Assembly (NCBI GenBank): GCA_041396705.1
Contig: JAWKYB010000003.1
Location: 28,985-92,984 of the forward strand
DNA length: 64,000 nucleotides
Direction: 5' to 3'
Origin: Alphaproteobacteria bacterium
GTDB taxonomy: Bacteria; Pseudomonadota; Alphaproteobacteria; CALKHQ01
Part shown: positions 2 to 58,617 of the stretch, piece by piece
Numbering within the stretch: position 1 is the stretch's first letter
Layout: every line of letters starts with the position of its first letter
Program-made: the position numbers and the translations under genes
Notes under the pieces: model-generated
The model's input: only the letters and a program-made list of their open reading frames with translations
Told to the model about the DNA's origin: nothing
Database searches by the model: none

Positions 2-3000
2 GACAACGACGACGACACCATCTCGACGGGCGGCGGCGACGTCACCATCCTGGCCAACGTGCTCACCTTCGCGCAGAGCAACACGCTCAACCCCGGCGAG
101 ATCGTGATCAATGCCGGCAGCGGCAAGGTGCAGTTCGACCGGGTCGACCCGGGCGAGTTCAGCCTGGGCGACGACAACGGCGGCACCCATCTGAGCCAGG
201 CGGAGATCCGCGCGATCCGCGCCGGTGTGCTGGTGGTCGGCGAGGGCGGCGGCGACCAGATCGCCAACCACGACGTGCAGGTCAACCTGATCAACGTCGC
301 CAACGTCAACACGAACCTTAGTAGTGCCATCAGCGGCCAGGTCCGTCTGTACGCGCTGGAGGGCAACAACGGCGACGTCGAGTTCAGCGGCGCCAACACT
401 TTCGTTTCGCTGGCGGCGTTTGCCGACGACAACGTGCTGCTGCTTGACGATGGCATTATCAGCATCACCGGCGGCGTCGGCGCGATCGCCGCACTGGCGG
501 CCGGCGACAACATCGAACTGCGCGCACGCACCTTGGTCACCACGAATGGCGGGGCGGTATCGCTGGGCGCCGGCACCAACGAGTCGACCGACACGGTGCT
601 GCTCGACGGCGACGTCACCACCAACGGCGGCCGGTTCTCGTCTGTGAGCAGGGACTTCATCATCGACGACGACGGCGACACGCTCTCGACCGCCGGTGGC
701 AAGGTCGAGATCCAGACCGACAGTATCGACATCGACAGCAACAACGCCGCGGTGGCGGCGATCGACGCCGGCAACGGCTCGGTCTACTTCTATCGTACCA
801 CGCCGGGCACGGTCGGCCTGGGCCAGGCGGCCGGCCAGTTCCAGCTGACCCAGGGCGAGATCGACCAGATCAACGCCCACGACCTGACCATCGGCGACCC
901 GGACAACGGCATCGTCGGCGACGACCTCAACGGCCACAGCAACCAGATCACCGACATCGCGCTGCTGAACGTCGACTTCACCGACAACGGTGCCAACGAC
1001 CAGGGCATCTCGACGCTGGTGCGGCTGTTCGCGCTGCGCGCGCCGGAGAGCGCCGACATCACGATGACGGGCAACATCATCGTGCCGCAGCTGCGCGCCC
1101 AGGCGAACGATCAGGTCATCGTCAACGCCTCGGGCAACCTCAATCCGGCCCTGCTCAGCGAACTGGGCACGATCCACCTGATCGCCCAGGCCGGCGCCAC
1201 CCAGCCGGGGCTGACGATCAACGGCGCGATCACGGCGGCGACCAACTTCCACGCCGACTCGCAGCAGGTCAGCCTCGACGCCAACATTATCGCCCCGGGC
1301 GGCATCACCGGCAGCGCCCAGCTGGTCACCGTGGTCGGCGCGACCAACGGCGCGCAGATCAACGACGCGCTCGGCATGATCACGACCAGCGCGACACCGG
1401 GCTCGCCGGCGCATGTCAACGTCGGCGACGGCATCTACAACGAAGCCGTGGTGGTGACCAAGAACAACGTGGTCCTGACCGGCGGCCTCGGCGCGATCGT
1501 GCAGCCGGCCAGCCCCGGCTTCACCATCAACGCCACCGGCGTCACCATCGACGGCTTCAGCTATTCCGGCACCGGCGGCGATTCAGCCATTCTGCTCACC
1601 GGAGCGGCGGACGACGTGATCATCCGCAACGGTGCCATCACCGGGACCTCCGGCGCGGCCGCCGCCGGGATCGAAGTCGACGTCACGGTGACAGCAGCGC
1701 TCGACCTGACTGTCGACAACGTGACGATGACCGGCGTTAGCGGTTTCGGGATCAGGATCGACCCGGCGCTGAATGGCGCCAACATTGCGATCACCGGCAG
1801 CACGGTCGCCGGGGCGGCCGACGGCATCCGCTTCGCCAACATCACCGACTCGACGGTGTCGATCGGCGGCCTGCTGCTCGGCGACGGCAACAGCATCACT
1901 GGCGGCGGCACCGGCATCGCCACCGGCAGCATCAGTGGCGGCAGCTTCGTCGTCGCCGGCAACAGCTTGGTGCGCGGCTCCTCGGGCTTTGTCTTCGGCG
2001 CGCTGTCGAACAACGCGCTGGTGGCCATCGTGAACAACAACGAGATCCGCGGGACGGTCGTCGATGGCATTGGCATTCTGCAGGTCACCGACAGCACGGT
2101 GGCCATCGCCGGCAACGCCGGCATCTTCGGCAACGACGACGGCATCTTCGTCAGCAACGCGATCGCCAACTCCAGCTTCACCGTTGGCAGCACGAATGTG
2201 ACGATCGGCGGCACGCCGACGGCCTTCGTCGGCAATGGCACCATCCAGGGCCAGAACGACGGCTTCGACATCGACAGGATCGACAACAGCGTATTCAGGG
2301 TGGCCGACAACACCCTGATCCGCGGCGTCAACGGTGATGGCTTCGAGTTCGACAACCTGATCCAGAACGGCGCGAGCATCGAGATCGTCGGCAACGACGA
2401 GGTTCGCGGCGGCACGCGTGCCATCCATTTCGAGCAGGCGATCACCGACAGCAGCGTCACCATTGCCGGCAACACCACGATGCTGGGCGACGCCAACGAT
2501 GGCATCCGCTTCAGCGGCACGCTGACCGGCGACACCGTGCTGATCGGCGGCTTGGCGGGGTCCGACGCCAACAGCATCCGCGGCGCCCAGGGCGGCATCT
2601 TCGCCGGCAACATCGCCGGCGGCAGCTTCCTCGTCATCGGTAACACCCTGGTCCGCGGCGACACCCAGGAGGGCATCCTGACCGGCGTGCTCTCCGCCGG
2701 CCTGACGTTCGGCATCGCCGGCAATTCCGAGATTCGCGGCGGAATCGACGCCATCGGCATCGGTCAGGTGGTCGGCAGCAGCACGGTGGCGATCGCGGAC
2801 AACTTCCTGATCGAGGGCGAAAGCGGCGACGGCGTGTTCGTCTCGACCGACATCACGGATTCCGTGTTCCGGGTCGGGTCCGCCACCCTCACGGTCGGGG
2901 GCATTCCGACACTGTTCGGCGGCAACGGGACGATCCGCGGACACGAGAACGCCTTCGACATCGACCAGATCGTCAACAGCACGTTCGCGATTACCAACAA

Positions 3001-4942
3001 CGCGCTGGTCCAGGGCGTGACGCAGGAAGCGATCCAGTTCGACAACACGATCGGCGGCGGCGCGAACATCGAGGTCCGGTCGAACACCACGGTCCACGGC
3101 GCCACCGACGGCATCGCCTTCCAGCAGACGGTGACCGACAGCACCGTCACGATTGCCGGCAACGTGATCGCCGGCGACAGCGAGAACGGCATCCGCTTTG
3201 CCGCAGCGCTGACCGGCGACACCGTGCTGATCGGCGGCCTCGGCGCGGGCGATGCCAATAACATCGCTGGCGGCAAGGTCGGCCTCGTCACGGGCAACAT
3301 CGACGGGGGCAGCTTCGTCGTCGCCGGCAACGCGCTGATCAAGGGCACGCTGTTCTCCGGCATCCAGATCGGGGCGCTCAGCAACGGCCTGCTCTTCGGC
3401 ATCGTCGGCAACACCGAGATCCGCGGCGTCGGCCTCGACGGCATCGACGTGCTGCAGGTCAACGGCAGCACGGTCGCCATCGCCGGCAACGACGGGATCT
3501 TCGGCGACGCCGACGACGGCATCTTCATCGGCAATGGAGTCTTCGACTCCACATTCATCGTCGGCACCGCGACGGTGGACGTCGCCGGAACGCCAACCGT
3601 CTTCGGCGGCAACGGCCAGATCGTCGCCAGGAACGACGGCATGGACATCGATCGGATCGACAACAGCACGTTCCGCATCGCCGACAACACGCTGATCCGC
3701 GGCACGGCCGGCGAGGGTCTGGAATTCGACAACACGATCCAGAACGGCGCGGTCGTCGAGGTAGCGGGCAATGTCGACATCCTTGGCGCGACGAGCGGCA
3801 TCGCGTTCCAGGCCAGCATCACCGGTGGCAGCGTGCTGATCGACCGGAACGGGACGGCCGACCAGAACGGGGCGCCCTATGACGGCACCGCACCGGTGGA
3901 CCTGGCAACCTTCGTGCCGACCGGCTCGATTGCCGGCGCCAGCGGCGCGGCCGTGTCGTTCTCCGACATCGCCGGCGATGCGGCGGTGACGGTTTCGCGC
4001 AACATCCTGACCGGCAGCCAGATCGGGGTCCTGTTCGGCACCGTAAGCTCAACCGGTACCACCGCGGTGCACAACAACTTCGTGCTGAACAACCTGTTCG
4101 ACGGCCTGCGCTTCGAAGGCAACGTGACCGGACGGGTCGAGGTGTTCCAGAACTTCATCGCCGACAACATCGATGACGGTATTGAGATCTCCGTCGGCGC
4201 CGATGTCGGCGCCGGCAACCTCGTGATCCAGCAGAACTTCCTGCCCGGCGCCGGTTTCCTCAACGGCAACGGCGGCTTTGCGGTCAAGCACGGCGGCACC
4301 GGCACCATCGACATCGAAGGCAACTGGTGGGGCTCGATCGCGGCCGCCGACATCGCCACCGTGCTGGACAACGTGCCGCTGCCGGCGCTGGTGGTGGCGA
4401 CCGGTGACGATACCAACGTGCCGGGCGTGCTCGGCGTGACCGGGCTGGACCCGTTCGCTTTCCAGAACGCGGTGCTGGTCGGGCCGTTCGTGCCTGGCGG
4501 CGGCGAAGTGCTGGGCTTCCTGGCCCAGGCGCTGCTGGTCGGTGTCCTGGAGCAGTCGTCAGGCGAGGCGACCCCGGGCGACCGCGTCGCCGGCCGGGCC
4601 GGTCCGGATGCCGGCAACGTCTTCACCAACGTGTTCGGCGAGGCCTACAGCCTGTTCGGTGAGGGCAGCCTGGCCGACCTGGCGCCGGCGGCGGGCGGCG
4701 AGGCCTGCACGCTGAGCCCGGTCGAGGGCGGCGTGTCGCTGGGTTGCGGCGCCGGCGGCGGTGGCGGCGGCACCGGCGAGGGCGGCCTGCCGAACCTGGA
4801 GCCGGCCGCGGGCGGTGCGCCGGCAATCGACCCGGGCCTGAACCTGCAGGACCTGCTGAACATGTGGCTGTTCAACTTCGGCACGCCGCTTGACGGCCCG
4901 GTCGCCGGGCTGGACGGGGCGGCGGCGGAGGAGGGCGCCTAA
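2..4942 (+). CDS. Giant secreted-type parallel beta-helix (PbH1/NosD-like) repeat protein, 5' partial. The reading frame is open from the window start; the ORF track begins at 59.
   Basis: 1627+ aa are made almost entirely of about 22-aa beta-helix turns (motifs GNxxIRG, DSTVxIAGN, GIxFxN). The C-terminus is Gly-rich. No stop occurs upstream in frame, so the N-terminus lies outside the window. Confidence 0.75.
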   Translation, partial: DNDDDTISTGGGDVTILANVLTFAQSNTLNPGEIVINAGSGKVQFDRVDPGEFSLGDDNGGTHLSQAEIRAIRAGVLVVGEGGGDQIANHDVQVNLINVANVNTNLSSAISGQVRLYALEGNNGDVEFSGANTFVSLAAFADDNVLLLDDGIISITGGVGAIAALAAGDNIELRARTLVTTNGGAVSLGAGTNESTDTVLLDGDVTTNGGRFSSVSRDFIIDDDGDTLSTAGGKVEIQTDSIDIDSNNAAVAAIDAGNGSVYFYRTTPGTVGLGQAAGQFQLTQGEIDQINAHDLTIGDPDNGIVGDDLNGHSNQITDIALLNVDFTDNGANDQGISTLVRLFALRAPESADITMTGNIIVPQLRAQANDQVIVNASGNLNPALLSELGTIHLIAQAGATQPGLTINGAITAATNFHADSQQVSLDANIIAPGGITGSAQLVTVVGATNGAQINDALGMITTSATPGSPAHVNVGDGIYNEAVVVTKNNVVLTGGLGAIVQPASPGFTINATGVTIDGFSYSGTGGDSAILLTGAADDVIIRNGAITGTSGAAAAGIEVDVTVTAALDLTVDNVTMTGVSGFGIRIDPALNGANIAITGSTVAGAADGIRFANITDSTVSIGGLLLGDGNSITGGGTGIATGSISGGSFVVAGNSLVRGSSGFVFGALSNNALVAIVNNNEIRGTVVDGIGILQVTDSTVAIAGNAGIFGNDDGIFVSNAIANSSFTVGSTNVTIGGTPTAFVGNGTIQGQNDGFDIDRIDNSVFRVADNTLIRGVNGDGFEFDNLIQNGASIEIVGNDEVRGGTRAIHFEQAITDSSVTIAGNTTMLGDANDGIRFSGTLTGDTVLIGGLAGSDANSIRGAQGGIFAGNIAGGSFLVIGNTLVRGDTQEGILTGVLSAGLTFGIAGNSEIRGGIDAIGIGQVVGSSTVAIADNFLIEGESGDGVFVSTDITDSVFRVGSATLTVGGIPTLFGGNGTIRGHENAFDIDQIVNSTFAITNNALVQGVTQEAIQFDNTIGGGANIEVRSNTTVHGATDGIAFQQTVTDSTVTIAGNVIAGDSENGIRFAAALTGDTVLIGGLGAGDANNIAGGKVGLVTGNIDGGSFVVAGNALIKGTLFSGIQIGALSNGLLFGIVGNTEIRGVGLDGIDVLQVNGSTVAIAGNDGIFGDADDGIFIGNGVFDSTFIVGTATVDVAGTPTVFGGNGQIVARNDGMDIDRIDNSTFRIADNTLIRGTAGEGLEFDNTIQNGAVVEVAGNVDILGATSGIAFQASITGGSVLIDRNGTADQNGAPYDGTAPVDLATFVPTGSIAGASGAAVSFSDIAGDAAVTVSRNILTGSQIGVLFGTVSSTGTTAVHNNFVLNNLFDGLRFEGNVTGRVEVFQNFIADNIDDGIEISVGADVGAGNLVIQQNFLPGAGFLNGNGGFAVKHGGTGTIDIEGNWWGSIAAADIATVLDNVPLPALVVATGDDTNVPGVLGVTGLDPFAFQNAVLVGPFVPGGGEVLGFLAQALLVGVLEQSSGEATPGDRVAGRAGPDAGNVFTNVFGEAYSLFGEGSLADLAPAAGGEACTLSPVEGGVSLGCGAGGGGGGTGEGGLPNLEPAAGGAPAIDPGLNLQDLLNMWLFNFGTPLDGPVAGLDGAAAEEGA
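1780..3850 (+). repeat. Three tandem super-repeats of about 690 bp (230 aa) inside the beta-helix gene.
   Basis: Near-identical blocks recur at about 1.8, 2.45 and 3.13 kb, for example TDSTVTIAGN..GDANDGIRFSGTLTGDTVLIGGL and FDIDRIDNS.FR.ADNTLIRG. Confidence 0.7.
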
Positions 4943-53784: not shown

Positions 53785-54720
53785 ATGGACGCGCTGCTGA
53801 CCGAGGTGTTCATCGGCTCGCTGCTGTTCGGCGCGGTGACGGCGGCGGTGCCGCTGCTGCTGGCCGGCCTGGGCGAGCAGGTCTCCGAGAAGGCCGGGGT
53901 ACTCAACATCGGCATCGAGGGCATGATGCTGCTCGGCGCCTTCGTCGGCTTCGCGGTGACCTACAAGGAGGATTCCTTCTGGCTGGGCTTCCTGGCCGGC
54001 GGTGCCGCCGGAATGGCCGCTGCCGCGCTGATGGTGGTTTTCTGCGTCTTCGCCGGGATGAACCAGATCGTCGTCGGCATCGCCATCACCCTGGGTGCGG
54101 AGGGGCTGACCGCACTGCTGCACCATTTCGAGTTCAGCCGCAGCTATCCGCGCCTGCCCAAGACCGAGACGTTGCCGATCCCGGGCCTCAGCGATCTGCC
54201 GGCTGTCGGTACGGCGTTCTTCGACCGCAACCCGATCGTCTATCTGGCGGTGCTGCTGGCCTTCTTCCTGGTCTGGTTGTTCCGCAAGACCCATATCGGG
54301 CTGAACCTACAGGCGGCGGGCGACAAGCCGGCGGCGCTGGACGCGGCCGGCGTCAGCGTCCGCACCACCCGCGCGGCCGCCGTACTGACCACCGGCTTCC
54401 TCGCCGGCGTCGGCGGCGCCTTCCTGTCGTCGGTGGGCGGCGGGCTGTTCCTGCCGTTCATGACCGGCGGCGCCGGCTTCATCGCCATCGTCCTGGCCAT
54501 GCTGGCCCGCGGCAAGCCGACCTGGGTGCTGATCGGCGCGTTCCTGTTCGGCATCAGCCTGTCGCTGACCACCGCGATGCAGGTCGCCGGCATCAACGTG
54601 CCGACCGACCTGATCCAGATGCTGCCTTTCGCGATGGTGATCCTCGTGCTGGTGGCATTCGGCCGCAACAGCCGGCTGCCGCCCGCGCTGGGCTTGCCCT
54701 ATCGCCGCGGCGCGCGTTGA
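53785..54720 (+). CDS. ABC transporter permease.
   Basis: Polytopic TM protein, 4 nt after the preceding stop. Confidence 0.8.
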   Translation: MDALLTEVFIGSLLFGAVTAAVPLLLAGLGEQVSEKAGVLNIGIEGMMLLGAFVGFAVTYKEDSFWLGFLAGGAAGMAAAALMVVFCVFAGMNQIVVGIAITLGAEGLTALLHHFEFSRSYPRLPKTETLPIPGLSDLPAVGTAFFDRNPIVYLAVLLAFFLVWLFRKTHIGLNLQAAGDKPAALDAAGVSVRTTRAAAVLTTGFLAGVGGAFLSSVGGGLFLPFMTGGAGFIAIVLAMLARGKPTWVLIGAFLFGISLSLTTAMQVAGINVPTDLIQMLPFAMVILVLVAFGRNSRLPPALGLPYRRGAR

Positions 54721-54746
54721 ATGCCCTGAAACGACGGAGAGAGCCC

Positions 54747-55544
54747 ATGGCCGAGACCAAGGTCTATTTGCTGGACGGCGGCACGCTGGTGATCGACGGC
54801 TTCCACGCCTTCTGGAACCGCGGGCCGGGCGGCGAGCTGCGCTTTCCCTGCTATTCCGTCCTGGTCGAGCATGCCGACGGCCTCTACATCTTCGACACCG
54901 GCTACGACTTCGACCACGTGATGAAGGTGCTGCCGTTCGAGAAGCCGATCCAGGACCCGGCGCAGACCATTCCCGGCGCGCTGGCCGCGATCGGCAAGAA
55001 GCCGGAAGACATCAACTACGTCATCAACTCGCACTACCACTTCGACCATTGCGGCGGGAACAAGCACCTGACCGCCGCCTGCACGGTCTGCCACGCCAAG
55101 GAGCTGGAGGCCTGCAGCTGCCACCAGCCGTTCGAGCACCTGGGCTACTCCGACCTCAGCTTCGCGCCGGAGCTGGCGGCGAAGAAGGCCGGCACCGAGC
55201 CGGCGCTCGACATCTACACGCCGAAGTTCGAGACCGTGACCGGCGACCAGGAGATCGCCAAGGGCCTGTGGCTGTTCGAGACGCCGGGCCACACCGCCGG
55301 CCACTATTCGATGATGGTGGAGCTGGCGAACCGGCGGCCGATGCTGTTCACCGCCGATGCCTGCTACTCCAAGAAGAACATGGACATGATGTGCATCTCC
55401 AGCTTCCACCTCGACCCGACCGCGAGCCTGCGCTCGATGGTGCGGCTGAAGGAACTGGCCGAGAAGCACGATGCCGAGCTGTTCTACTCCCACGACCCCG
55501 ACAGCTTCGGCGACTACATCAAGGCGCCCGGCTACTATTCCTGA
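54747..55544 (+). CDS. MBL-fold metallo-hydrolase of the N-acyl-homoserine-lactonase / 4-pyridoxolactonase type.
   Basis: HYHFDHCGG is the HxHxDH motif. The protein is 265 aa and cytoplasmic. RBS is GGAGAGAG. Confidence 0.75.
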   Translation: MAETKVYLLDGGTLVIDGFHAFWNRGPGGELRFPCYSVLVEHADGLYIFDTGYDFDHVMKVLPFEKPIQDPAQTIPGALAAIGKKPEDINYVINSHYHFDHCGGNKHLTAACTVCHAKELEACSCHQPFEHLGYSDLSFAPELAAKKAGTEPALDIYTPKFETVTGDQEIAKGLWLFETPGHTAGHYSMMVELANRRPMLFTADACYSKKNMDMMCISSFHLDPTASLRSMVRLKELAEKHDAELFYSHDPDSFGDYIKAPGYYS

Positions 55545-55565
55545 CCGCCCCCGGCACGCGCCGCC

Positions 55566-55767
55566 GTGCGTCCTTCGAGACGCCGCCCTGCGGGCGGCTC
55601 CTCAGGATGAGGGGCGGGGGTGTTTGGCAGCGACGATTGGAACGCGGCGGCGATTGCGCTCGCTCGCGCGAAATGTGCGTGCGCCGATCGGCGCAAGACC
55701 GATGGAGCCGCACCGCCCTTCCTCATCCTGAGGAGGCGCGCAGAGCGCGCCGTCTCGAAGGACGCAC
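55566..55767. repeat. Palindromic MITE/REP-like element of about 200 bp. Two imperfect 57 bp inverted arms flank an 88 bp core. Each arm contains its own internal hairpin.
   Basis: Arm 1 is GTGCGTCCTTCGAGACG..CTCCTCAGGATGAGG..GTG. Arm 2 is its reverse complement with compensatory changes: CCGCCCTGCGGGCGG versus GCGCGCTCTGCGCGC. Confidence 0.65.
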
Positions 55768-55775
55768 CCTGTTCG

Positions 55776-56954
55776 CTATCCGGCCGCGTCGATCACGGCC
55801 ATCGCAGCCGCCACGCCTGCGGGCACGTCGGCGCGGAAGCCGAGGCGGTTGAGGGCGCCGCCGAGGGCGGCGATGGCGACGACGGCGTAGATCGGTTCGG
55901 CGGTCGGGCCCATGTGGCCGATGCGGATCAGCTTGCCGAGGGTCTCGCCGCGGCCGACCGACAGCATCACGCCATAGCCGTTGCGGGCGGCAGCGATGAT
56001 GTCGCCGTCGCGCAGACCCTCGGGCACCGCGACCGCGGTGGTGGTCGGCGAGGCAATGGCCTCGTCGGCGGCCCACAGCCGGCAGCCCATCGCCTTGACG
56101 CCGGCACGGCACGCGGCAGCGGTCAGCGCGTGGCGGCGCCAGACATTCTCCGGGCCTTCGGCCAGATAGACGTCGATCGCGGCCGACAGGCCGGCGATCT
56201 CCGAAACCGACGGCGTGAACGGGAACGGTGAGTCCTTGCTCCAGGCGTGCTGCCAGTCCCGCAGGCTGAGGATCGAGGCGGTGGGGCAGTCGGGGTTGGC
56301 CGCCATCTGCGCCCACGCCGCCTGGCTGACCGCGATGACGGTCACGCCCGGCGTGCCGCCCAGGCACTTGCCCGGCCCGGTGATGAACACGTCGGCATGG
56401 CAGTCGGCCGGGTGCACGTCCATGCCGCCGAACGACGACACCGCGTCGACCAGCAGCAACGCACCGTGATCGTGGACGATGCGGCCGATCTCGTTCAGCG
56501 GGTTGACGGTGCCGGACGGGGTGTCGTGATGGACGACGGAGACGATCCTGATGTCCGGCCGCTGCTTGAACGCGCGGGCGACGTCGGCCGGGTCGATCGC
56601 CGCGTTGTACGGCACCTCGATTTCGACCATGTCGCCGTGATAGCGCGCCGACCAGTATCCGAAGCCCTTGCCGTAGACGCCTGAGGCGAGGTTGAGCACG
56701 GTATCGTTGCGGCCGATCAGCGAGGCCGCGGCGGCCTCGATCGCCACCGCCGGCTCGGCCTGGATGATCAGCGCCGGGTCCGGCCAGCGCATCGCCTCGG
56801 CGCAGCGGCGCGCCACCTGCTCATAGAAGTGCAGGAAGCTGGGGTCGTAGTCGTAGCCGAGCGGCCGGGCCATCGCGAGCAGCACCTCGGGATAGCCCTG
56901 CACCGGGCCGGAGGTCAGCGTGATCACCGCCTTCTTGATCGGTGCGTCGCTCAT
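55776..56954 (-). CDS. Class V aminotransferase (alanine-glyoxylate / serine-pyruvate / pyridoxamine-pyruvate type).
   Basis: GPGKCLGG carries the PLP-Lys. RBS: AGGGAG, 6 nt, ATG. Confidence 0.8.
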   Translation of the reverse strand: MSDAPIKKAVITLTSGPVQGYPEVLLAMARPLGYDYDPSFLHFYEQVARRCAEAMRWPDPALIIQAEPAVAIEAAAASLIGRNDTVLNLASGVYGKGFGYWSARYHGDMVEIEVPYNAAIDPADVARAFKQRPDIRIVSVVHHDTPSGTVNPLNEIGRIVHDHGALLLVDAVSSFGGMDVHPADCHADVFITGPGKCLGGTPGVTVIAVSQAAWAQMAANPDCPTASILSLRDWQHAWSKDSPFPFTPSVSEIAGLSAAIDVYLAEGPENVWRRHALTAAACRAGVKAMGCRLWAADEAIASPTTTAVAVPEGLRDGDIIAAARNGYGVMLSVGRGETLGKLIRIGHMGPTAEPIYAVVAIAALGGALNRLGFRADVPAGVAAAMAVIDAAG

Positions 56955-57039
56955 CGTCTTCTCCCTATTGGTCCCGCCGCGCGGAACCATGATAGGGTCC
57001 GATCATGAACGACGCCACGGGGAAGCGCAGGCAGCGCCG

Positions 57040-58617
57040 ATGACGCAGGGCCGCACCGCGTATGATTTCGTCGTGGTCGGGGCCGGCACCGCCGGCTGTG
57101 TGCTGGCCGCGCGGCTGAGCGAGGATCGGCACGCCAGGGTGGCCCTGGTCGAGGCTGGGCGCGCGGCCAGCGACCCCGCCATCGCCGACCCGCTGGCTTG
57201 GCCGGCCCTGCAGGGCTCCGCCGTCGACTGGGGCTATGCGACCGTGCCGCAGGCGGCGGGGCGGCGGCACGCGTGGCCGCGCGGGCGCGTGCTCGGCGGG
57301 TCCTCGGCGATCAACGCGATGGCGCATGTGCGCGGCCACCCCGACGACTTCGACCGGTGGGCGGCGGCCGGTTGCCGCGGCTGGGGCTATGCCGACCTGA
57401 TGCCCTACTTCCGGCGCAGCGAGGATTCGCCGCTGGCGCCGTCGCCCTACCATGCCGCCGGCGGACCGATCCGGCTGATGCGGCCGGAGGCGCCGCATCC
57501 GATCACCGAGGCCTATCGGGCGGCCGGTGCGGAACGTGGGCTGGCGCCGACAGCGGACCATAATGGTTCGCAGATGGCCGGGCCGACGCTGAACACGCTG
57601 ACCATCGACCGCGGCCGCCGGCAAACGGTGGCCGACGCCTATCTGACCGAGGCCGTGCGCGCGCGGCCGAACCTGGCGCTGCTGACCGGCCTGCTGGTCG
57701 ACCGGCTGGCGCTGGAGCCGGACGGCCGGTGCACAGGGATCGCCGTCGTCGACCAGTCCGGCACGCGCACGATCCGCGCCGACCGCGCGGTGGTGCTGGC
57801 CGCCGGCGCGATCGGCTCGCCGGCCATCCTGCTGCGTTCCGGCATCGGCCCGGCCGACGAACTGGCGGCGCTGGGCATCCGGCCGCTGGTGCCGCTGGCC
57901 GGCGTCGGCGCCAACCTGCACGATCATCTGCTGTCGGGCGGCAATGTCTATCGCGCGCGCCGGCCGGTGCCGCCGTCGCGCTACCAGCATTCCGAGTCGC
58001 TGATGTACATCGCGGGCGAGGGTGCCGACCCGGCGCCGCAGCTGGTGCTGGCCTGCGTGATTGCACCGGTGACGACCGAGGCCTTCACGGCGCCGGAAGC
58101 CGGCAGCGCCTACACCGTCATGTTCGGCTTCACCCATCCGCGCAGCCGCGGCACGCTGCGGCTGGCTTCGGCCGACCCGCTGGCGCAGCCGCTGCTCGAT
58201 CCGGCCTATCTGTCCGATCCGGCCGACCGCGCCCGTTATGCCGAGGCGCTGGACTGGGCGCGGGCGGTGGGCGGCGCGCAGGCGCTGGACGACTGGCGGG
58301 CCGACGAGCTGCTGCCGACGCCGGCCGATCTGGCCGACGAGGCCGCGCGTCAGACATTCCTGGCCCGGGCCGCCTATACCCACCACCACCCGGTCGGCAC
58401 GTGCCGCATGGGCACCGGCGCGGATGCGGTGGTTGGCCCGGACCTGGCGGTGCGCGGTTGCGAGGGCCTGTATGTGGCCGACGCGGCGGTGATGCCCTCG
58501 ATCACCACCGGCCCGGTCAACGCGGCCATCCTGGCGATCGCCGAGCGCGCCAGCGACCTGATCGCGGGACGCGATCCGCTTCCGCCCTACGATCCGCGGA
58601 CGGTGGTGCAGCCGTGA
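57040..58617 (+). CDS. GMC-family FAD oxidoreductase (choline dehydrogenase / pyridoxine 4-oxidase-like).
   Basis: YDFVVVGAGTAGCVLAARLSED binds FAD. The C-terminus HHPVGTCRMG...DLAVRGCEGLYVADAAVMP is the GMC signature. Confidence 0.85.
   Translation: MTQGRTAYDFVVVGAGTAGCVLAARLSEDRHARVALVEAGRAASDPAIADPLAWPALQGSAVDWGYATVPQAAGRRHAWPRGRVLGGSSAINAMAHVRGHPDDFDRWAAAGCRGWGYADLMPYFRRSEDSPLAPSPYHAAGGPIRLMRPEAPHPITEAYRAAGAERGLAPTADHNGSQMAGPTLNTLTIDRGRRQTVADAYLTEAVRARPNLALLTGLLVDRLALEPDGRCTGIAVVDQSGTRTIRADRAVVLAAGAIGSPAILLRSGIGPADELAALGIRPLVPLAGVGANLHDHLLSGGNVYRARRPVPPSRYQHSESLMYIAGEGADPAPQLVLACVIAPVTTEAFTAPEAGSAYTVMFGFTHPRSRGTLRLASADPLAQPLLDPAYLSDPADRARYAEALDWARAVGGAQALDDWRADELLPTPADLADEAARQTFLARAAYTHHHPVGTCRMGTGADAVVGPDLAVRGCEGLYVADAAVMPSITTGPVNAAILAIAERASDLIAGRDPLPPYDPRTVVQP

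Follow-up and report, generated by a model that had tools for sequence, protein, structure and literature searches.

A probable REP-like doublet from a palindromic repeat family of Alphaproteobacteria lies between two convergent genes

The stretch of DNA analyzed here (64,000 nt, in the following called the window) carries at positions 53785-58617 genes for a lactonase, an aminotransferase, and a GMC oxidoreductase beside a branched-chain-type ABC permease. Because the GMC oxidoreductase gene adjoins those of the lactonase and the aminotransferase, this region looks like a cluster for vitamin B6 (pyridoxine) degradation in which the GMC oxidoreductase would probably be pyridoxine 4-oxidase; homologues of the aminotransferase are named pyridoxamine--pyruvate transaminase in their source annotations. 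The lactonase and aminotransferase genes converge, and a preliminary description of this DNA correctly placed a structured palindromic element between their 3' ends. The element consists of two inverted copies of a 47-nt unit, of which the left one begins 21 nt past the lactonase stop codon (gene end 55544) and the right one ends 8 nt from the stop of the minus-strand aminotransferase gene (55776). The features of the locus are as follows, with scores from R1, a covariance model of the unit built only from other genomes, i.e., with the window excluded:

54747..55544, + strand: 4-pyridoxolactonase gene, metallo-beta-lactamase fold (Pfam Lactamase_B; PDB 3AJ3, E 3e-106)
55566..55612, + strand: left unit, 47 nt (R1 56.8 bits, E 5e-12, full model 1-45)
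55566-55574, + strand: left unit, 5' strand of the basal stem plus T
55575-55576, + strand: left unit, TC bulge
55577-55579, + strand: left unit, GAG
55580-55581, + strand: left unit, AC
55582-55598, + strand: left unit, apical hairpin G-CCGCCC-TGC-GGGCGG-C
55599-55600, + strand: left unit, TC
55601-55603, + strand: left unit, CTC
55604-55612, + strand: left unit, A plus 3' strand of the basal stem, GGATGAGG
55613..55720, no strand: spacer between the unit tails, 108 nt, present just once in the window and absent from all loci compared
55721..55767, - strand: right unit, 47 nt, inverted (R1 53.7 bits, E 3e-11, full model)
within 55721..55767, - strand: right unit, apical hairpin G-GCGCGC-TCT-GCGCGC-C
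55776..56957, - strand: pyridoxamine-pyruvate aminotransferase gene, class V (Pfam Aminotran_5; PDB 2Z9U, E 9e-156)

The two units lie within inverted-repeat arms of 57 nt each (55566-55622 and 55711-55767) that are 82% complementary and 88 nt apart; scanning the full window revealed no longer inverted repeat and no other strong local one. Both the repeat search and a reading of the sequence agree with the earlier claim of 57-bp inverted arms whose ends are identical at 17/17 and 15/15 positions, as the blocks GTGCGTCCTTCGAGACG (17/17) and CTCCTCAGGATGAGG (15/15) are exact on both arms. With up to two mismatches allowed, the 15-mer CTCCTCAGGATGAGG has only two sites in the 64 kb, i.e., the two arms, compared to 0.11 expected by chance, and neither conserved box of the arms was found elsewhere in the window. 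The arms owe their length of 57 nt to partial complementarity between the outer 10 nt at each end of the spacer. This spacer also holds a 16-nt perfect palindrome, TGCGCCGATCGGCGCA (55680-55695), and folds about as well as its shuffled versions (z = 0.15 and -0.93). Folding of both strands, which the preliminary description had suggested, revealed strong structure for the 236-nt intergenic spacer as a whole, which lies far below its shuffles on either strand (z = -5.5 and -6.0) with 0 of 200 shuffles folding as well. The folding energy of the whole region is -145.8 kcal/mol on the plus strand and -142.7 kcal/mol on the minus strand, and each unit folded alone adopts the structure characteristic of the family described below (-31.5 kcal/mol for the left unit, -24.9 kcal/mol for the right one).

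The inner palindromes of the two arms are indeed self-complementary, as had been proposed, though the left one was written as CCGCCC-TG-CGGGCGG and actually reads CCGCCC-TGC-GGGCGG, i.e., a stem of 6 bp (7 with the closing G-C) around a 3-nt loop. The 15-nt hairpin inserts of the arms differ at six positions, namely at two base pairs flipped from C-G to G-C and at two loop bases, compared to no difference at all among the 32 flanking box positions (hypergeometric p ~5e-4). Compensatory change between the arms, another part of the original proposal, is therefore real, and the two pair flips match the covariation seen across the family.

When R1 was run on the window with filters off, nothing in the 64 kb other than the two arms scored above 13 bits. 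Beyond the window, the exact pattern TCGAGACG-N10-25-CTCCTCAGGATGAGG occurs at at least 120 genome loci (on contigs from one genome per species), and almost all of the matches listed are from Alphaproteobacteria. The taxa that carry it include Bradyrhizobium, Bosea, Reyranella, Methylocystis, Rhodopseudomonas, Tardiphaga, Afipia, and Pseudolabrys as well as Microvirga, Devosia, Parvibaculum, Methylobrevis, Brucella rhizosphaerae, Rhodospirillales MAGs, and others, and the same exact pattern is present in 69 IMG/VR stretches (L147-L215) from contigs classed as viral. A relaxed pattern scan yielded 243 units, and R1 detected 218 units over 805 kb of the matched loci, with the window arms in the middle of the score range. 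BLAST with a consensus unit against 72,556 PLSDB plasmid records (E <=10) returned full-length matches in unannotated DNA of large replicons of Rhizobium, Methylobacterium, and Roseibium, with no Sinorhizobium meliloti replicon among the matches, and the whole 216-nt element had no match among the plasmids at E <=1e-3. The preliminary description had named single-copy occurrence combined with a lack of structural conservation in relatives as the finding that would speak against its reading; the unit and its structure instead recur in well over 200 copies elsewhere. The doublet itself is single in the window and missing at the same locus in relatives; the copies seen in the source genome are the two units within the 64 kb examined.

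From base to tip, a unit is composed of a basal stem, a TC bulge, a GAG/CTC helix, an AC/TC internal loop, and an apical hairpin. In the basal stem, C(A/G)TCC-T pairs with A-GGATG, and roughly one unit in two has a longer stem, CCTCATCC / GGATGAGG. The GAG/CTC helix is invariant, the internal loops (TTCGAGAC / TCCTCA) are nearly so, and unpaired nucleotides hardly vary across several orders. The apical hairpin is GC-rich and free in sequence and length, mostly with a TTC or TGC triloop, and some units carry structured insertions of 30-70 nt at this position. Partner units from outside the exact-pattern selection retain the TTCGAGAC and CTCCTCA loops. In three cases (L024 3449-3555, L072 1736-1845, and L021 2144-2221), the apical hairpin is replaced by 30-70 nt with small palindromes that may be other REP types nested in the unit.

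We tested this structure with 59 units of equal length which align without gaps, so that the alignment is free of structural bias. The proposed pairs are formed in 89.9% of cells compared to 77.8% in shuffles, and sliding the partners by one to three columns as a control reduced this value to 39-51%. Double-change cells number 107 where 33.9 are expected, with each of the apical pairs 18-30 to 22-26 contributing 4-31 double changes, and RNAalifold independently arrives at the same fold. The basal stem covaries as well (TCC/GGA, TGG/CCA, TGC/GCA, and CCC/GGG, with ACAC/GTGT in L058). Mismatches of the G:T and A:C type are balanced in the apical stem (10 and 14, respectively), and the working strand and molecule, RNA or DNA, can therefore not be assigned from them.

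Readings of parts of the unit as known motifs failed. A CsrA-type GGA hairpin site was rejected since GGA is swapped for CCA, GCA, GGG, or GTG along with its upstream partner, and a K-turn reading of the bulge would disrupt the invariant GAG/CTC helix. Likewise, reading TTCGAGA as a tRNA T-arm and T-loop fails given that the covariation partner of position 8 is position 38, not position 16. Apart from this test, we observed that the invariant TTCGAGA (55574-55580 and 55753-55759) equals the tRNA T-loop consensus and that the CCAT-type head GGTTCGAGAC found in other units resembles a T-arm; a tRNA-derived origin of the repeat family is conceivable.

Among 140 groups of units, 96 are inverted doublets, composed of 63 head-to-head and 33 tail-to-tail arrangements, while 40 units are apparently single and tandem copies are rare; several of the apparent singles have diverged partners when searched with R1. 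The doublet in the window is of the tail-to-tail type, and its 108-nt spacer is the longest of the 33 such doublets (median 23 nt). None of 114 unit groups lies inside a gene. They are enriched between convergent genes (38% of groups vs 19% of background gene pairs) and depleted between divergent genes (10% vs 18%), with a median distance of 48 nt between a unit and the preceding stop codon. Single units show no preference for the sense or antisense orientation relative to the upstream gene (6 vs 9), which argues against a strictly sense-strand RNA function, and the neighbors of units are unrelated transport, metabolic, and housekeeping genes with no shared gene function.

Units come with different heads. 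In Bradyrhizobium-type loci (e.g., L004, L014, L025, L084, and L093), heterodimers of a GGAT-type and a CCAT-type unit are common and have lower complementarity between their arms. In the window, by contrast, both units are of the GGAT type, and the hairpin of this homodimer is unusually long as a result. Its unit head, GTGCGTCC, is also that of L018 and L100, where tail-to-tail doublets have a 28-nt spacer in common.

In L045, three doublets are ca. 92% identical over ca. 125 nt, spacer and extended inverted termini included, and they separate unrelated genes within 2.8 kb; doublets of Bosea have heads and spacer in common. Judged by such sequence similarity, the whole doublet is evidently the copied entity in other genomes, as it is with REPINs. 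The L045 sequence (1-2806) is a small Bradyrhizobium contig on which the three elements of ca. 125-160 nt with the termini ATCnGTnTTGCnGCCCAT... occupy consecutive intergenic spacers, and one of the copies is conserved except for its apical hairpin, which differs and is longer. Bradyrhizobium liv-type operons were also compared for orthologous doublets, though these operons may be paralogues.

The gene order GMC oxidoreductase, aminotransferase, lactonase, and permease is kept in four loci (L121-L124) with aminotransferases that are 80-86% identical to that in the window; the closest relative is at 86%, the named relatives are Tistlia and Dongia, and the best relative from the metagenome scan reaches 78%. 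The two stop codons are separated by 24 nt in L122 and by 8 nt in L123 and L124, and another gene lies between them in L121. No unit was found in any of 26 related loci, i.e., these four and 22 loci from metagenomes. Since these loci lack the unit and three of them have intergenic spacers of only 8-24 nt, the doublet was gained by insertion in the lineage of the window, and the comparison shows it to be a lineage-specific insertion between convergent genes of vitamin B6 catabolism. Given that all 26 related loci do without it, the B6 genes do not need the doublet. A target-site duplication, which the preliminary description proposed to look for, is not apparent: the flanks ...CGCCGCC / CCTGTTCG... 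(...GCCGCC / CCTGTT...) contain no direct repeat. In L121 (5215-6768), the locus with the aminotransferase of 86% identity, a PLP-dependent decarboxylase-like gene of ca. 1.5 kb takes the place of the doublet; gene calling split it into two parts, perhaps owing to a frameshift. The intergenic position of the doublet thus seems, from these sequences, to be a recurrent site of gain.

The preliminary description had left open whether the element is REP-like, a miniature mobile element, a terminator, or a small structured RNA. We consider it likely that it is a tail-to-tail doublet of ca. 47-nt REP-like units from a family dispersed in alphaproteobacterial intergenic DNA which was inserted at this site and probably has a passive effect as a hairpin. 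It belongs to a dispersed, intergenic, and palindromic family and shows the general traits of REP-like repeats, i.e., a stem-loop palindrome and frequent inverted dimers. The more specific alternatives are not supported. For a MITE in the strict sense, there is no target-site duplication and we could find no parent IS, and for an intrinsic terminator a U-tract is lacking; no terminator-like site was predicted on either strand within 54600-57100, and the sequence that follows GGATGAGG is G-rich. A stand-alone gene for a small RNA is not supported either, as there is no sigma-70-like promoter near the element, units occur in both orientations relative to their neighbors, and a search of the whole window against Rfam 15 at gathering thresholds gave no match. 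For the region 55450-55900, Rfam hits at E <=10 comprised only a chance plant miRNA (20.7 bits vs a threshold of 268) and an IRES.

The family shares several features with the REP/BIME repeats of enterobacteria, which are likewise short, imperfect intergenic palindromes that are mostly located at gene 3' ends, occur in alternating inverted copies, and often pair two unit types, as the GGAT-type is paired with the CCAT-type here. However, the unit has another sequence without a GTAG tag and, instead of a simple conserved stem-loop, forms a bulged hairpin of three helices with invariant loops and a variable apical stem. An analogy in architecture, and in architecture only, exists with the attC sites of integrons, which likewise fold as single strands into hairpins whose base is conserved, which contain extrahelical or unpaired bases, and whose terminal structure varies freely in length. 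Unlike attC sites, the family lacks a RYYYAAC/GTTRRRY core and is not arrayed as cassettes in a single orientation; an integrase is absent nearby, and the units form inverted doublets. RIMEs of Sinorhizobium and Rhizobium, reportedly described by Osteras et al. in 1995 and cited in PMC2573895, are mosaic repeats between rhizobial genes that consist of large palindromes. The family resembles them in this, but its membership among the RIMEs is unsupported, with no S. meliloti replicon among the PLSDB matches of the consensus unit.

Closer parallels exist with the REPs of Alphaproteobacteria themselves. In a survey by Di Nocera et al. (2013; PMC3733652), tagged REP superfamilies are defined by an unpaired GTAG or CGTC at one end of a stem-loop of 5-13 bp, and the CGTC REPs among them are described as predominating in Alphaproteobacteria, mainly as inverted dimers, in intergenic regions, and with no dedicated transposase; their stems measure 8-9 bp and their loops 4-5 nt, and they carry CGTC as a terminal tag and CCA as a tail. 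Taxon, inverted dimers, intergenic location, and lack of a transposase all match our family. Its units end in (C)CTCATCC... and ...GGATGAGG (or GTGCGTCC in the window), though, and therefore carry neither a GTAG/CGTC tag nor a CCA tail. Br-REP1 and Br-REP2 of Bradyrhizobium japonicum (Hahn et al. 2016; PMC5082802) are REPs located where the 3'-UTRs of convergent genes overlap, in Bradyrhizobium as well as in Rhodopseudomonas, and are transcribed within 3'-UTR-derived RNAs, but their consensus (CCGGAATCTCGAGATTCCGG; CGAGATTCCGGGTTCGGCTCTT-CGAGCCGCCCCGGAATGA) is unlike the unit (PMC5082802). The motifs of the unit are absent from the supplements of PMC5082802 and from the available portion of the supplementary text of PMC3733652, and literature searches returned nothing for the 15-mer and only unrelated primers for TTCGAGACG. 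We could not find this REP-like family under any name in these two REP surveys or in Rfam 15.

Enterobacterial REPs are known to act at the RNA level as barriers to 3' exonucleases and in termination. By analogy, both convergent transcripts at the locus in the window would run into a very stable hairpin directly past their stop codons, and this hairpin could shield their 3' ends from exonucleases and limit transcription into the opposing gene. We infer such a role at RNA 3' ends, as a hairpin or an insulator, and the effect of the doublet at this locus is likely a passive one. For the spread of the family, the substrate of the enzyme is probably the folded single strand, in which the invariant loops at the hairpin base would be the site recognized.

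Which enzyme this might be is best discussed with the REPIN-RAYT systems of Pseudomonas and enterobacteria, in which two inverted REPs and a spacer form one long hairpin (PMC3116915, PMC3337134) that, as in our family, is copied whole and leaves no target-site duplication. A REPIN in the strict sense, i.e., a REP doublet which a RAYT (Y1 HUH) from a single-copy gene elsewhere in the genome would excise and insert in single-stranded form, would explain the architecture of the family with its many inverted doublets, the copying of doublet and spacer together in L045 and Bosea, and the absence of a target-site duplication, as expected of HUH transposition; we also infer a resemblance of the invariant unpaired bases below the variable hairpin to Y1 targets. 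Nevertheless, we regard this explanation as unlikely. No RAYT was found with the family in the loci examined, where the genes beside or between units include neither a Y1-like gene nor any other transposase gene, and a scan of 1.69 Mb of loci plus the window for a RAYT-like motif found no match, which is a weak negative. The units have no GTAG tag, and the apical hairpins differ between otherwise near-identical doublets; moreover, the family forms both head-to-head and tail-to-tail doublets and spans several alphaproteobacterial orders, unlike REPINs with their restriction to one lineage. The literature points in the same direction, with CGTC REPs of Alphaproteobacteria lacking a dedicated transposase (PMC3733652) and Y1 transposase genes being absent or scarce in Alphaproteobacteria with small and large genomes alike (PMC6006769).

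A related idea, which we think is unlikely, is that the unit could be an undescribed, order-spanning, structure-specific recognition module of Alphaproteobacteria whose invariant TTCGAGAC/TCCTCA platform, below a hairpin of any sequence and size, would be read in the form of single-stranded DNA or RNA by a conserved host or mobile-element protein other than a RAYT. If true, this would be a new system for the mobilization or processing of dispersed bacterial repeats, akin in logic to attC/IntI and REP/RAYT but distinct from both.

Alternatively, the unit could be a functional RNA or single-stranded DNA motif under selection whose invariant loops are bound by a conserved host protein, which would make the doublet a regulatory or processing site in the mRNAs of B6 genes and not selfish DNA. 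Strong covariation in two helices, nearly invariant unpaired nucleotides across several orders, an apical position that tolerates any hairpin or insertions of 30-70 nt, and the proximity of units to stop codons are all in line with this view. We nonetheless find it quite unlikely given that units are tied neither to an orientation nor to any gene function, that no Rfam family or promoter-like site was detected, and that the gene pair lacks the doublet in 26 of 26 related loci. Compensatory change can also arise in DNA palindromes without selection through hairpin-templated repair (quasi-palindrome mutagenesis).

As a MITE, the element would be a deleted derivative of an insertion sequence with the 57-nt arms as terminal inverted repeats for a DDE transposase acting in trans. 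The long inverted termini, the size of ca. 200 bp, and the intergenic insertion that is missing in relatives would fit, as would the family-specific extended termini in L045 and in L100/L018. However, besides the missing duplication at 55566/55767 and the lack of a transposase gene bounded by units in the loci examined, each arm folds independently as a covarying module, and single units as well as head-to-head and tail-to-tail pairings are common, unlike in elements defined by terminal inverted repeats; we therefore deem a MITE very unlikely. A locally evolved bidirectional terminator or chance palindrome without any repeat family, which the GC-rich hairpin between convergent genes could suggest, can be dismissed: the unit recurs at at least 120 genome loci with 218 units, both arms match the model from other genomes at E ~1e-11, no shuffled sequence folds as well, there is no U-tract, and orthologous spacers lack the hairpin.

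With the REP-like doublet as the preferred reading, the locus itself carries little weight, as a lineage-specific insertion that is absent from all 26 related loci. The family is of broader interest because many Alphaproteobacteria, among them rhizobia of agronomic importance, carry it in abundance, and it combines textbook covariation and nearly invariant unpaired bases with absence from Rfam 15 and no linked transposase that we could find. Naming and modeling it would remove recurrent spurious small ORFs and small-RNA predictions, and a family model would serve as a marker for strain typing. The family also is a tractable case for studying how REPs of Alphaproteobacteria spread without RAYTs.

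Far from the doublet, the window contains at 300-4800 a large gene with internal tandem repeats of ca. 687 nt (families D1-D3 and D8) that probably encodes a repeat-rich secreted or surface protein.
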